A DNA stretch of 61,619 nt, the filler included, from Basidioascus undulatus (taxonomy: Eukaryota): the NCBI GenBank assembly GCA_000826855.1. It is 12 parts of 12 records of this genome, joined end to end, with 100 filler letters (N's around TTAATTAATTAA, not from the genome) between each part and the next. Parts side by side here need not be neighbours in the genome. Positions count along the whole stretch, not along the records: positions 48,150 to 51,453 come from JTLS01002462.1; 11 more parts are not named here. One strand, written 5' to 3'. Below, one piece after another: positions 7,246 to 51,453 of the stretch. The position numbers and the translations under genes are program-made. The notes below the pieces were generated by a model, which was not told the origin of the DNA, ran no database searches, and saw nothing but the letters and a program-made list of their open reading frames with translations. Position 1 is the stretch's first letter. Every line of letters starts with the position of its first letter.

Positions 7246-8871
7246 GAGATGGGGAGGAGCGAGACACGGAGGCAAATGTGCCTTGCTTGGTTGCTGGATT
7301 GTGCGGGGAGAGGGTGTGCAGAGGAGTTCGGAGAGGAAGATGTGCTTGCACTGCGTGAGGCGAGCCCCTGGGCACCGTCAATCGCGCCGCCTTGATCCTC
7401 CACCACCAAGGTTTCCCTGTCCTTCCCCACCCGTCTCAGCCCTCCCCACTGTCGTTCTTGTTCCTCCACCTCCTCCCCATCCCCCTGCTCCTCCCGCTTT
7501 CGTAACCCTTTGAATGACCCCATCTAGGGAAGGAACAACCTCCGCACCATCCGTGACACGTCCCAACGTCTCCCGTGCCTTCTCTTTAGCTGCCCCACGC
7601 TCCCCAGCTCCCTCCACCTCCGCTCCCCTCCTTCGCTCCCCCTCATCCCCTCCCCCCTCCGACGTTCCACCTTCTTTGCCTCGTTCCCTTTTGGAATTAT
7701 TTCATCTTTCTCCTCTTCCTTTCTGTTCATACTCTCTCACCTATATGTACAATAATCCACTATTGAATTAAAATGTTTTGTTCCGCTTTGGATACTGGAG
7801 CTGCAGGCTCCCTGTTTGGTGGGCATCAGCAGGAACGAGGCATCGCGCTGCGAATGACCGACAGTGCTGATAGATTTAGGCCCATCAAAGTCTCCAAAGC
7901 TAAATGTGATTTAATTGTCGTTACATTTCTTTTTTTTTTTACTGTTCGACCCAATGAAGTATATTCAGTTTACCTGGCAATTGTGGCTTGGAAGCTGTTG
8001 CCTGCCCCATTCTGAGAATGCCTGCCAATGCCTGCCATCTGCCTTCATTCTACCCTCTAGACGCGTCAGAACACGGGGCAGGCGCAGTGAACAATCATGA
8101 ACTTCAAGAAAGTATGTCAGAAATGCTCTATGCAAAGTAACAGGCTGCTTCGTGGGACAATGAGCAGGGCAGAGGAAGAAAAGAAAATGAGCTGCAAATT
8201 GTACCGCAGCAACGGCCGCAATGCTGTACCAAATGGTGAGGACGCAAATGCTGCGCAAACAAAACTGCGAAGTATAAGTGGTAATCCAAGAAAAGCGGAA
8301 GCGGCAAATCAATTTTTGGGGCCAGAATAAGCATTTCAACGGCATCGCTAAGCACCCCAAAGGCTAGCACGGCCATTCCGGGCAGCGCGAGCGATCGAAT
8401 GACGCCGCTGCCCGAAGCCAAGCGAAGACATGGGGAGAAGCCGATTCAGCCGAGCCCGTGCCGAAAGACCGCACCGCGCGAGCCTAATCACTATCTCTTA
8501 ATCACTTTGTGAAGCCTCCAAATTGATTTTGTCGAGCCTCGAAACAGGTTTGTTTGCACGCTTTTATTTCTCAAATCGAGCCCTTACCGACCCTCAGTAC
8601 CTACTGTCTCTCACAACAACTTCGATTCCCCTTTTTTCACTCTCACAATCTACACAACATTTCAAACACCACACATTTCTTCTCGAGCTGCAGCACCCGG
8701 GACGCCGCTGTCAGCGCGTGACTCACAGCCGACCTTAACCGGGCGTCGCGTCCGCCGGTGCGCGCATTGCGTCTTCTTCTCCTTCCCTCTCACCCTCACC
8801 TCCTCCCTCCCATCTCACTAACTTCCTTCTCTCCATCCAAACAAACTAACCTTCCTCCCTTTCGATCGATC

Positions 8872-10537
8872 ATGCTCACCCAGCAAAAAATCAAAGTAGC
8901 AGGCGTCCAGTCCGCGCCCGTCGCGTTCGACCTCCCCGCGACGCTGGCCAAGCTTGCTTCCCTCACGCGGCAGGCTGCGAGCCAGGGCGCGGAGCTTGTC
9001 GTCTTTCCTGAGGCGTTTGTTTCGGCTTATCCGCGCGGTGGATGCCTGCTCCTCCTCTCCCCTACCTTCTCCCCTTCTGCCCGCTAAACCGGCTTGGGGG
9101 ATAGGGTATTCGTTTGGTGCAGGTGAGTAAGAGATGATGACAAAGATGACATGAATGCGAACGGAATGCTGATGATGTGGGCCGAGGGTTCAGTGGTCGG
9201 TTCCCGCACGCCCGAAGGGCGCGCCTGGTTCAGGCGCTACCACGAGAGCTCCGTGGCAGTGCCGTCGCCCGAGTTCGACCAGATCCGCGAGGCGGCGAAG
9301 GAGAACGGCGTCTTCCTGCAGGTGGGGATTATCGAGAAGGAGTGCGTGCTCCCTTTCACCCTTTCGCCTTCCTTCCCCCCTCACGAAAAGGCGGAAGGAA
9401 GGCAAAGAAGGCAGACAGACTGATTTGTGGGATGGGTGAAAAGCGGCGGGACGCTCTACTGCTGCGCGGTGCTGATCAGCCCCGTGGGCGAGCTGCTGTA
9501 CAAGCACCGGAAGGTGCGTTCTCTCGCTCATTTCCTTCATGCCTCACATCGCATGTTTGCTGAATTTGAAGTGGGGGGAAAAGGTCATGCCCACCGGCTC
9601 CGAGCGCCTCGTCTGGGGGTTCGGGAACGGCGATGGGCTGTCGGTGGTGGATACTGAGATCGGGAAGATCGGGTGCGTGCGCATGCTTGGGACACTACTT
9701 CCTTCGTGCGCAGTGCGGAATGCTAACCCCGCTCCTGCTGCGCGCAGGTCGGTCATCTGCTGGGAGAACTTCCAGCCGCTCCTGGTGCGTCCCTGTCCGA
9801 CCGAGTGCGCTGGAAAAGAGGAAGGCTGATAGAAGGCTGTTGGGTATGGTCGCAGCGCGCGGCAATGTATGCCCAGGGTATCCAGATCTACTGTGCGCCG
9901 ACTGCGGACGGGTGAGCCCCATGGGAGAAGGTGGTTTGGTTGGCAAGGGCGCACGCTGATGGGGGGAGAGACGTCGGCAGGCGCGATACTTGGCCGCCGC
10001 TTATTCAGACGCTTGCGCAAGGTGCGGGATGGACGGTAAGGGAAGTCGTTGATGGGACTATGACTGATGGTGAATTGCAGAGGGCCGGCTCTTCGCCATT
10101 TCAGTCAACCAATTCGCAACCGCCAGCGACTGTTCGTCCCTCTCCGCCTCCGTCCTTCACTGTATTCCCCTCTCGCTCACCTCCCGCTGGCTCCCTTTCC
10201 AGACCCCTCCGACTACCCGCCCACCCAAGGCAAGCCCGCCGACGAGATCGTCACGCGCGGGGGGAGCTGCATCGTCGGTCCTTTAGGCGAGTTCCTGGTC
10301 GCGCCCGTGTGGGACAAGGAGGACATCCTCGTCGCGGAGATTGAGCTCGACCGGATCGTCGAGGCCAAGATGGACTTTGAGTACGTGGTGCATGAGGGAA
10401 GAGGCAGTGGGGTGGGCTGGGGGCTGACATGAGGGATGGGGGACGTGAGCAGCGCGACGGGTCATTATGCCAGGCCGGATATCTTCCAGCTTAGTGTCAA
10501 CCGCGCGGGGGGTGGACCGGTTACTTTCAGTGGGTGA
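8872..10537 (+). CDS. nitrilase (carbon-nitrogen hydrolase), multi-exon
   Basis: Catalytic triad motifs FPEAF (Glu), HRK-MPTGSER (Lys), ICWEN (Cys). C-terminal GHYARPDIF. Confidence 0.95.
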
Positions 10538-34503: not shown

Positions 34504-34841
<338 letters not shown>

Positions 34842-35611: not shown

Positions 35612-36040
<429 letters not shown>

Positions 36041-48149: not shown

Positions 48150-48330
48150 CGGTGTACAGGTCCTTCATCCGCCCGCTCCTCGAGTATGCGGGCCCCATCG
48201 CATGGCTATGGGCAGGCAAGGTGCGGGAGCGCCAGCCCATGCTCGAGGACGCTCACAGGGTCTGGGTAGAAGCCGTGACATGGGTTATCGCAGGTCGGAC
48301 CGGACACAGGAAGCCAAGATCGCAGCGGCG
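48150..48330 (+). mobile_element. non-LTR (LINE-type) retrotransposon fragment, RT thumb region
   Basis: VYRSFIRPLLEYAGPI resembles the conserved LYxxxIRPxLEY motif C-terminal to LINE RT. Confidence 0.65.
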
Positions 48331-49764
48331 GTAACGTCTCTTTGCGGAGTACTGAGTTGCTATCAGATGCTGACGGCGGCCATCGTTTCTCGAGCGTTTC
48401 AGTGTGTACGTGCTTCCTGCCGAGTACTGACCTACAATTAGACGCTGACACTGGCCATCGCCTCTTGATCATCGCAGATCGTACGTGCCTCCCCGCCGAG
48501 TACTGACCTGCAATCAGAAGCTGACAGTGGCCATCGCCTCTTCATTATCTTAGCACGTACATGTCTCCCTGCCGCGTTCTAACCTGCAGTCAGATGCTGA
48601 CGCTGGCCATCACCTCTTGATCATCTCAGGTCGTACGTGTCTCTTTGCGAGTACTGACCTGCAATCAGATGCTGATAGTGGCCACTGCTTCTTGATCATC
48701 TCAGACTGTACGTGTTTCCCTGACGAGTACTGACCTGCAATCAGATGCTGACAATGGACATCCCCTCTTCATCATCTCAGGACGTACGTCTCTCCCTGCC
48801 GAGTACTGACCTGCAATCGGATGCATACGGCGGCCATTGATTCTTGATCATATCAGCTCGTATGTGTATCCCTGCCGAGTACTGAGCTGAAATCAGATGC
48901 TAACGGCGGCCATCGCCTCTTGATCATCTCAGAATGTACGTGTCTCTCTGCCTAGTACGGAGCGCAATCAGACGCTAACGGCGGTCACCTCTTGATCATC
49001 TCAGAATGTACGTGTCTCTCTGCCTAGTACGGAGCGCAATCAGACGCTGACATTCGCCGTCGCCTCTTGATCATCTTAGGCTGTACGTGTCTCCCTGACG
49101 AGCACTGACCTGCCATCAGCTGCTGACCGTGGCCGTCGCCTCTTGATCACCTCAGGAGGTATGTGTCTCCTTGCCGAGTACTTGACCTGCAATCAGATGC
49201 TGACGCCGGCCATAGCTTCTTGATTATCTCAGTTCGTACGTGTCTCCCTGTCGAGTACTGACCTACAATCAGAAGCTGACAGTAGCCATCGCCTTTGATA
49301 ATCTTAGGAGGTACGTGTCTCTCTCCCGAGTACTGACCTGGAGTCAGATGCTGACACTGGCCATCACCTCTTAATCATCTTAGGGTGTACGTGTCTCCCT
49401 GCCGACTCCTGACCTGCAATTAGACGCTGACACTGGACATCGCCTCGAGATCATCTCAGGTCGTACGTGCCTCCCCGCCGAGTACTGACCTGCAATCAGA
49501 AGCTGACAGTGGCCATCGCCCCTTGATCATCTTAGGGTGTACGTATCTCCCTTCCGATTACTGCTATTCAATCAAATGCTGACGGCGGCTATCGCTTCTT
49601 GATCATCTTAGCTCGTACGTGTCTTCCCGCCGAGTACTGAGCTGCAGTCAGATGCTGAACGCTGGCCATGACCTTCTGATATCTCAGCAGGTATGTGTCT
49701 CCCTGCCGCGTACTGAATTACAATGAGCTGCTGATGAACATAGCTACTACGTCCATGATCTCAA
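48331..49764 (+). repeat. tandem array of 19 intron-like units (~73 nt) separated by 18 variable 3-nt spacers (putative single-codon exons)
   Basis: Consensus GTACGTGTCTCCCTGCCGAGTACTGACCTGCAATCAGATGCTGAC-N4-GGCCATCGCCTCTTGATCATCTYAG plus NNN; period about 76 nt. Confidence 0.95.
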
Positions 49765-50848
49765 ACGGCCCTATGGCAGTGAACCGTTCCCGACAAAGCC
49801 CGTCGACATTTTTGTGCGAGTGCCAAGAACGCGTTGCAATAACTCTCACCTTTCGCCAAGCCAACTTCTTCTGTCACACTCCTTTCCGTTATAGTCCCTT
49901 TGTAATGCATCTTCACTGCCACTCGACTATACAGCCCCTTTTGGTAGCCTATAAAGAATGCCCCCTTGACCCCCCTTGTTCGCCATTCATTCTTGCAGTT
50001 CTACTTCTGCCCGAGTCGTCGCTCTCGCGCTTGCCTCGCAATACACTGAGTCGACCCCGATATCCCAGGATAAAATATGTTCAAAGGAAATGGAAGAACT
50101 GAGATAAAATGGGGAAAACAAGAGAACGCGTGAACACATTGACCAGTGGTGAGCTGCTGAGTGTAAGTTTACACTGACAAAACCAGGAGAGCGCGCGAGA
50201 GAAGCAGAAGAAGGGACAGAAATAAAAGATAGAGAGAGGGAAGTATGGGAATGGCACCTCTCCAGGATACAACAACTCCTGGTTAAGGAGAGACTTGCTG
50301 GCTAGATCCTCACCGTCTCTCAACTGCCTCAATGTCTTCGCAAAAGCCCCAGGCGGAAGAGGTGGCGCATGCATGTAAGATGCTTACATAGCGACTGGCG
50401 GAGCGCGCGAAGCGACAGCTACTATGGCAATCACCACCAATCAGAATTCATACGCTACTACGTGGCACATAGTGTAACGGTGCTGGAGTTCGATAGGTGG
50501 TTATTTGGCGCTTCAATGTTTATAGCTAGTTGTTTTGGCGCTCGAGGCCCTCTAGGGGCCACGAGACTTGTCGGGCAAACGTATAATCGATCGCGCGGGC
50601 GCCACTCCTGGTTCGCCACGACTTTCATGGCCGATAGCTAGACCTCGATAAATTGCATCGAAGTCTTTGTGTGTGCGAAAGTTGTCTGAGGCAACAGCCT
50701 TTCACCTAGGTTAAACCCCAGAGGTCTCTTTGTGCTTACGATTTCTTCCAAACCACCCACTATCTCCTCGTTGGCCTTCGCAAGCTGACTTTGGAATTTT
50801 CTGCTCCCACTTCTCCGCACCCCAGCTACGGCATTCTGCACCATGGCT

Positions 50849-51453
50849 CTAGTCATGTACGGTGTCGATGGCTCGACCGACCAAATCGCGATCAATGACT
50901 TTTTCAGCGACACCTTTGCCCTCGACCCATCTTACGCTGCAAAGTGGGCGGGAGACTGCAGGCGGAAGTACTCGCCCACGCGACCGGGACATGGGTTTTG
51001 TCTGAAGGGAGATGGTCCGTCTCGAGGGGGAGTAGAGTTCATCAGATGCATTAAAATACGACAAAACGGCTGTATTCGTCAACAAGGAGGGAAGCGTGAA
51101 GGATCAGACCCTGAATGTGGCCGCGCAGGAGCGAATACTGGCCTCTACATGGAGGTACCGGACTGGACTTCTGCCTTTCGAGTCCAGAGAGGCGTACTGG
51201 GGCAGGGACTGGCCCCTCCCTGCGCCAAGATCGAGGATCACTCGCGAACCACCCCGACCCGCTGCCGCTGAGTATATGACGCGCTTAAGCTCAGCGCACA
51301 CGGCCTCCGCTCTACCAATGGCGAGGGGGTCACCTTCCTCGCCCGCTGCGGACTGGAGCACCGCAAGGCAGGCGGCTGCATCGTTCGCAAGCGTCTTGTC
51401 AGGCCTATGGAACACCTCGAGCACCTCTACGCTGGGAAAGCCACTCCCACCCC
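50849..51453 (-). pseudogene. degraded viral-type mRNA capping enzyme / SAM methyltransferase fragment (putative endogenous viral element)
   Basis: RPDKTLAN followed by VILDLGAGRGQSL and YLHVE. Intronless; in-frame TGA at 51104-51106. Confidence 0.55.

Follow-up and report, generated by a model that had tools for sequence, protein, structure and literature searches.

A single-locus tandem array of intron-like units separated by hypervariable three-nucleotide spacers in Basidioascus undulatus: putative amplification of a splice-competent intron

The closest described counterparts of the locus treated here, a tandem array of intron-like units separated by three-nucleotide (3-nt) spacers in a 61.6-kb stretch of Basidioascus undulatus DNA (the window), are found in several systems. 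The spider Flag silk gene is reportedly built of tandem intron+exon units, in work that Hayashi and Lewis are said to have published in 2000. Tandem intron-exon arrays also serve as hosts of small nucleolar RNAs (snoRNAs), as in SNHG14 with SNORD115/116 (PMC11608373), and 27 exons of 3 nt are spliced in 26 genes of Coprinopsis cinerea (PMC12230235). The micro-exon genes (MEGs) of Schistosoma encode secreted proteins and combine exons of 3-81 bp with introns of up to 5 kb (PMC10526429), introns can be gained by tandem genomic duplication under the AGGT model, for instance in the potato RdRp gene (PMC4974935), and introner-like elements are spliceosomal introns of which one genome carries whole families, near-identical in sequence and dispersed over many genes (PMC4457414). 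In the open-access literature that we searched, no description of a tandem intron array or of a run of 3-nt exons came to light.

The explanation that we favor, and to which we give about an even chance, is that a splice-competent intron was amplified in tandem together with one triplet, and that the resulting array is most likely transcribed from the + strand. One short U2-type, fungal-style spliceosomal intron together with three exonic bases would have been amplified in tandem at one locus, growing by ordinary DNA-level duplication of units and blocks inside a transcribed region, and each unit would since have been kept splice-competent by selection on the positions that splicing needs. Transcripts of the + strand would lose the units one by one (intron definition) or in blocks, from a donor to a later unit's acceptor, and the mature RNA would retain 3 nt per unit. 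A 1.4-kb insertion in a short-intron organism can probably be removed only piecewise, which would place every unit under selection.

The window consists of 12 contigs joined end to end and sorted by falling length, one of 24.1 kb and then eleven of 3.28-3.32 kb; its 11 linkers (window 24149-58340) have the form N44-TTAATTAATTAA-N44. Since the contigs are glued, arguments from neighborhood across the linkers are invalid, and the array's own piece is 48150-51453 (3304 nt). The source genome has a GC content of ~58% and, judging by Pfam hits on split open reading frames (ORFs; for example, CN_hydrolase hits at 8722-9084 and 10064-10429) and by its histone genes, it is that of an intron-rich, fungus-like eukaryote with short introns. 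Three contig sets from two studies, X1, X2 and X3, all of them DNA, were compared with the array piece; X1 and X2 yield identical contig pieces, are not independent and may be one strain.

Tandem Repeats Finder (TRF) returned a single array at 48336-49734 (period 76, 18.5 copies, matches 77%, indels 1%); a row with period 227 also has 77% matches, so that a higher-order repeat is not clear. The array as a whole is placed at 48336-49764. The per-unit profile has 19 matches in the array, with E from 3e-24 to 1e-9 (nhmmer, window). The array occupies one locus at single-copy depth (47-50 in X1, vs 48.9 in the unique flank), and two X1 depth bins near 93 inside it are due to the collapse of near-identical units. 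Cut as an earlier, sequence-only reading of this DNA had proposed, it falls into 19 intron-like units, the last one degenerate, and 18 spacers. That reading described intron-like parts of 69-74 nt, junctions that all keep AG-NNN-GT with exactly 3 nt in between, and 13 different triplets of which none ends in A, and each of these descriptions holds at all 18 junctions. The spacers start at 48403, 48478, 48554, 48630, 48705, 48781, 48857, 48933, 49005, 49080, 49156, 49233, 49308, 49384, 49460, 49536, 49612 and 49688.

Donors are likewise as first described: GTACGT in 14 units, GTATGT in 3, GTACAT in one (u03) and GTAACG in one (u00). The CAG or TAG said to end each unit is present in 18 units (CAG in 12, TAG in 6), but in the last unit no AG stands where one would be expected. 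GTAACG does stand at 48331, but this first donor is chimeric, its bases up to 48335 coming from a multi-copy element and the repeat itself starting at 48336. Unit u00 (48331..48402, + strand) is therefore a chimeric, degenerate edge unit, with GTAAC from the element and 17-25 differences from the other inner units over 76 columns. Seventeen complete intron-like units of 69-74 nt (u01-u17) follow, with the 18 spacers, at 48403..49690 (+). The right edge is the degenerate unit u18 (49691..49779, +), with donor GTATGT and a CTGAT at unit position 41; its homology fades near 49747 (nhmmer match 49691-49747), it has 25-32 differences from the other units, and in place of an AG at the usual unit end its first YAG is found at 49777-49779, followed by TGA. 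The edge units are thus the most degenerate ones of the array, as is expected under unequal exchange.

Two neighboring units deserve a separate remark. Units u08 and u09 (48936-49079) have the same preceding spacer, AAT, and are identical over their first 41 columns, after which they show 10 differences; the pattern indicates either that part of a unit was duplicated recently or that one unit is a recombinant. Unit u08 also carries one 3-nt and one 1-nt deletion. At a larger scale, the block u01-u02 resembles u14-u15.

The units match the local introns in length and signals, a similarity that supports their reading as candidate introns. Histones H3 and H4 lie head to head at 34504-34840 (minus) and 35613-36040 (plus). 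The sequence-only reading had compared the spacers with the codons of these genes, which lie on another contig piece (~34.5-36 kb). H4 has two short introns, and H3, which is cut by the contig end, has one complete intron and the start of a second. With splice sites placed by eye and lengths counted by hand, the three complete introns measure roughly 55-70 nt, and the H3/H4 introns have donors GTAAGT, GTGCGT, GTCAGT and GTGAGA, branch motifs of the form CTNAY and acceptor CAG. A crude search for further introns, as GT...AG segments between coding-like frames, gave 16 candidates of 54-127 nt with donors GTNNGT/C (often GTNCGT, e.g., GTTCGT) and with CTGAC, CTAAC or CTGAT in most. The donor form GTNNGT/C fits 17/19 units, the exceptions being GTACAT in u03 and GTAACG in u00. 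Branch-point motifs, also claimed from the start, are confirmed as at least one CTRAY in 19/19 units: 16/18 complete units have it 26-29 nt before the 3′ end, 11/18 have a second CTGAC at 46-47 nt, and where one branch motif is broken in a unit another CTRAY is present. A pyrimidine-rich tail and, in 18/19 units, a YAG at the unit end complete the set of signals.

Splice signals are better kept than the rest of the unit. In a MAFFT alignment of 18 units and 79 columns, neither AG nor GTA varies (both 18/18); the sequence-only reading had made its case depend on per-column conservation, with GT and AG better kept than other columns, and in the signal tests, made on the 17 complete inner units, the splice columns are significantly better kept. 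Nine strict positions (donor G1, T2, G5 and T6; C, T and A in the 3′-proximal CTNAY; acceptor A and G) deviate from consensus in 2/153 cells. Among nine-column sets drawn at random from the intron, 8/200,000 had counts as low, as did 4/200,000 sets that shared the block pattern. Fourteen wider signal columns deviate in 14/238 cells, against 127/1003 elsewhere (586/100,000 random blocks are as low), and most of these 14 deviations are of tolerated kinds, namely C/T at donor +4, C/T at acceptor -3 and G/A in CTRAC. Because permuting columns leaves the common ancestry of the units intact, their relatedness does not create this result.

The pattern has to be weighed against an inert minisatellite: DNA-level amplification would have multiplied either an intron with its 3 nt or part of the neighboring element, and the product would undergo neither transcription nor splicing. 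Degenerate edges and the partial and block duplications (u08/u09; u01-u02 resembling u14-u15) are what such a history would leave, and the absence from the unit of any stable fold, Rfam, tRNA or inverted-repeat feature points the same way. A neutral minisatellite would be expected to vary evenly, with no position-specific constraint, and this is not what we observe: 2/153 deviations at splice-critical positions are not predicted by neutral decay, and the positions required for splicing would thus be held by selection. We consider the inert minisatellite unlikely and keep it at that level mainly because transcription of the array is deduced from DNA.

The spacers were said to be the most variable positions, and this proved correct. 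Their entropies (1.84, 1.84 and 1.48) are the highest of the 79 columns, followed by columns 48-50 (0.92-1.46) and column 40 (1.35), and in the spacer columns the majority base is found in only 39-44% of the units. Mean pairwise difference is 0.70 in spacers vs 0.20 in the intron part (3.5x), and on the unit tree 6-8 parsimony steps are needed for the spacer columns, whereas intron columns average 1.48 and never exceed 5. The tree also links the spacers to the units that they precede: GTC, ATC and TTC stand before the members of clade u15/u02/u12, GGT and TGT before those of clade u14/u01. In these two tightest (youngest) clades the preceding spacers differ at position 1 only, and all the changes alter the amino acid. 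Spacers are inherited with the following unit, which implies that the array grew by copying spacer plus intron and that the spacers were altered later. Unequal exchange or gene conversion cannot homogenize the intron and yet spare 3 nt, which leaves selection or very local mutation. The constant 3-nt spacing, on the other hand, which had been offered as evidence, loses its weight: ~10 indels in ~1300 intron nt, counted by hand from the unit alignment, predict ~0.4 in the 54 spacer nt. The mutational spectrum discriminates no reading, with transitions and transversions at 38:38 in intron columns and the spacers saturated.

For the inert minisatellite, the variable triplet would be a mutation-prone junction, produced for example by repeated breaks that are mended with errors. 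It does not predict the exact placement of the three most variable columns, with an invariant AG on one side and an invariant GTA on the other, and a junction-repair hotspot would leave the branch motif 29 nt away unprotected. We know of no mechanism that mutates exactly 3 nt at every junction of a tandem array. The existence of a second variable patch without a coding reading, columns 48-50 (-11.1 bits as a control triplet), is more easily accommodated by an inert repeat. This second, weaker patch follows the 3′-proximal GCTGAC, shows GGC, AGT, ACT and GCT recurrently and marks subfamilies of units.

Could the spacers be codons? The lack of a stop in the 18 triplets, put forward originally, carries little information, the chance probability being (61/64)^18 = 0.42. 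Scored in phase 0 against a table of 729 codons taken from histone exons and exons with Pfam hits, the triplets reach 8.6 bits, or 0.478 per codon vs 0.475 for the reference, with p = 5e-5 in within-triplet shuffles, 2e-4 in all-base shuffles and 7.5e-4 for random window triplets; the 13 distinct triplets alone give p = 0.0035-0.011, and the other two frames score -8.7 and -36. A larger, self-trained table of 1739 codons lowers the phase-0 score to 2.8 bits (0.16 per codon vs 0.57 for coding), with p vs random window triplets of 0.018 for all and 0.036 for the 13 distinct, a drop caused by third-position T in 7/18 spacers vs 7-12% in the coding references. Reverse-complement triplets are also positive, at +4.9 with the smaller table and +1.1 with the larger one. 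The 13 distinct triplets stand for 13 different amino acids, and the zero synonymous pairs among them (P = 0.005 by column shuffles of the 18 triplets; 0.027 or 0.007 given 13 distinct) compare with 10 in frame 1, 6 in frame 2 and 6 in the reverse complement. The triplets are not independent, being inherited in duplications, and these codon statistics were chosen post hoc; the spacers are moderately codon-like in phase 0, which is suggestive and not decisive.

These observations bear on a coding version of the spliced array, in which the 3-nt exons would be phase-0 codons, substitutions that change the amino acid would be favored and skipping would give in-frame variants. It is the only reading that explains the fast evolution of the spacers, and the reference-like phase-0 score beside negative scores in other frames, the missing synonymous pairs and the amino-acid-changing substitutions in the youngest clades all agree with it. 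The shrinking of the signal with the larger table, the excess of third-position T, the positive reverse complement and the dependence among triplets under post hoc statistics count against it. We regard a micro-exon coding segment as unlikely. Its strict form, in which every exon is a single codon between sibling 73-nt introns and splices from a donor to a later acceptor would delete residues in frame, we regard as quite unlikely. Combinatorial peptide diversity through unit skipping, proposed initially, would be pure conjecture. What stands of the proposed gene of one codon per exon is the tandem amplification of intron plus 3 nt; its coding context was not found, as the flanks make clear.

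To the left, the array abuts the end of a multi-copy (~15x) coding element at 48150..48335 (+), with an ORF in frame 48152 that ends in TAA at 48332-48334; the array repeat starts 1 nt past this TAA. X1 depth is 726 over 48150-48260 vs ~48 in single-copy sequence, and all three contig sets have loose ends at 48335, beyond which other copies of the element continue with different letters. Ten listed variant sites among the copies (48190-48304) fall on codon position 3 in six cases and on position 1 in four, never on position 2. Frame 48152 is the only coding-like upstream frame; per 40 codons it scores 11.8 bits, where the 95th and 99th percentiles over the window are 7.0 and 21.6. Its 60-aa ORF matched nothing in Pfam or in a word-indexed protein search, no family in Atlas, and gave 0 matches at E <= 0.001 in a full HMMER search of 1.84 billion representatives. 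A first impression of a reverse-transcriptase motif of long interspersed nuclear elements in this ORF had no tool support and was withdrawn, and two metagenome loci with a 21-residue match to it were dropped as chance, the one inspected (L002) having bacterial-looking neighbors.

This flank offers the codons little. The upstream phase-0 frame scores about -10 per 40 codons, and the frame that does look coding ends in TAA; spliced at CG|GTAACG, it would read the spacers in frame 1, which is open and not codon-like. As the array abuts a truncated copy of the element, any original upstream exon is invisible on this contig, and a micro-exon segment whose upstream part was severed by the repeat element is one possibility. 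In-phase first and last coding exons, which the initial proposal implied, were not recognized, the contig reaching only 181 nt upstream of the array. No signal peptide or start context was found for a coding segment.

The junction directly after the TAA also admits a role for the array as an appendage of the element, either as a run of introns in the 3′ untranslated region (a mark for decay, or a cause of spliceosome stalling that leads to small-RNA silencing) or as an extension of the ORF, since splicing from CG|GTAACG would remove the stop. Spliceosome stalling reportedly feeds RNA interference in Cryptococcus, a finding attributed to Dumesic et al. in 2013. Either role would bring selection on splice signals, and frame 1 is open through the 18 spacers (0 stops) and, by our own reading, for 38 codons past the acceptor at 49779. 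Such an open frame of 56 codons is not significant at this GC content, though, and frame 1 is not codon-like (-8.7, or -11.3 with the 1739-codon table). The array occurs in this copy only, the others continuing differently past 48335; the element has no identified family, and the hypervariable spacers and phase-0 signals would go unexplained. On balance, we hold this role to be improbable.

The same boundary has been considered as a source of the unit. By eye, the 30 letters after 48335 in other copies of the element resemble the first ~27 nt of an array unit, so that the unit might derive from that element. A derivation from the adjacent flanks was rejected, since the similarity is not significant: 198/300 shuffles were as good for the upstream 186 nt and 296/300 for the downstream flank. 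This result also speaks against an inert minisatellite made from its surroundings.

Downstream, a single-copy flank without recognizable gene extends over 49780..51136 (no strand assigned; depth 48.9 in X1 and 19.4 in X2). A phase-0 exon was sought here: TGA comes right after the first usable acceptor, which is a further difficulty for a coding segment, and none of the AGs in the next 650 nt leads into an exon with a positive score. A second multi-copy coding element, outside the array, lies at 51137..51453 on the minus strand; its X2 depth is 460-810, 10-40x single copy, its X3 depth exceeds 1000, and variants of other copies occur at every third base. The contig stops at 51453 because of this element. 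For the minus-strand ORF 51107-51451, Atlas places mRNA cap guanine-N7 methyltransferase clusters nearest, some of them from giant viruses, with a weak score of 0.92, and the family at this end may be part of a repeat element or of an integrated virus-like element. This right-flank ORF had no Pfam hit and no related locus in genome_contigs, no protein homologue was found for the ORF at 50846-51268, and Pfam on 12 ORFs of 48150-51453 gave only two sub-threshold rows. A position between two multi-copy elements, in DNA without recognizable gene, suits an inert minisatellite.

Other identities for the array were examined and discarded. The units as introner-like elements would call for dispersed copies, a stable fold and terminal inverted repeats with target-site duplications, and none of these was found. 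Introner-like elements are reported to fold stably, whereas fold z-scores here range from -0.85 to +1.66 (3 units, both strands), no better than shuffles; no inverted repeats of at least 12 nt within 120 nt mark hairpin or transposon ends, and the triplets flanking units mostly differ from each other, without a target-site duplication pattern. Outside the array, nhmmer found no unit copy below E = 0.95 in the 61.6-kb window, a profile search whose scope leaves room for divergent copies elsewhere in the genome, and a 28-nt degenerate unit pattern had 0 matches in metagenome_contigs and 0 in genome_contigs (prokaryote). A tRNA reading, considered on account of the 76-nt period, was dropped with 0 ARAGORN predictions, and an array of structured RNAs or snoRNAs with 0 Rfam matches at E <= 1 on 48150-51453. 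Read-through coding was rejected as well, all six frames being broken (longest ORF 111 aa), and a protein search with one such read-through ORF, of 75 aa, returned no homologue. A search of the window for an intronless parent of the joined spacers found none.

Returning to the tandemly amplified, splice-competent intron, several points weigh against it. We infer its transcription, splicing and strand from DNA only. No promoter, start codon or host gene was identified on the array's contig, the 1.4 kb downstream contains no family match or coding-like exon, and both contig ends are multi-copy elements. The signal test was designed post hoc and used the better-kept of two CTGAC motifs, at a cost of about a factor of 2. 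Splicing alone leaves unexplained why the spacers outpace the non-signal intron columns. With only 3 nt between them, neighboring spliceosomes may hinder one another, and 18 consecutive 3-nt exons are without precedent found in the open-access literature.

If the array is spliced, it would be the most extreme micro-exon run that we found described, with 18 consecutive 3-nt exons, and a live case of introns multiplying by tandem duplication while functional. It would mean that a short-intron, intron-definition spliceosome tolerates a 1.4-kb insertion made of self-contained introns, and it would offer a route for the origin of 1-3-nt exons in fungal genes. Should the triplets be translated too, the array would represent a new gene architecture in which all protein-level variation lies in isolated codons; the coding version, if true, would by its very structure generate peptides that vary in length and sequence. 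If the array is not transcribed, near-invariant splice positions around three near-saturated junction bases would still require a mutational explanation, for which we can name none.

Set against the systems described above, the array recombines familiar features. The 3-nt exons of Coprinopsis cinerea indicate that a basidiomycete spliceosome joins exons of this size between short introns; those micro-exons are isolated in ordinary genes, in contrast with 18 in a row between sibling introns here. SNHG14 and, reportedly, Flag share with the array tandem intron+exon units whose introns are better conserved than their exons. In SNHG14 the introns are conserved for their snoRNAs, for which Rfam gave no counterpart in the array, and Flag reportedly has kilobase-sized units homogenized together with long exons; exons in both measure tens to thousands of nt, not 3. 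Introner-like elements differ in being scattered, while our units stand in tandem at one locus, without a stable fold or terminal inverted repeats.

The MEGs of Schistosoma are alike in their runs of very short exons with lengths in multiples of three, in skips that keep the frame and in variation concentrated in the exons. Their introns are long and mutually unrelated, their exons are mostly longer than 3 nt and their terminal exons encode a signal peptide and a tail; in the array, the introns are 73-nt tandem near-copies, every exon would have 3 nt and no terminal exons were seen. The AGGT model supplies the mechanism of closest likeness, in that tandem duplication at the DNA level makes extra spliceable GT...AG units whose duplicate boundaries are splice sites. 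Its known cases add one intron out of exon sequence, whereas the array repeats a whole pre-existing intron plus 3 nt ~19x, so that the duplicated segment is almost exactly the intron.

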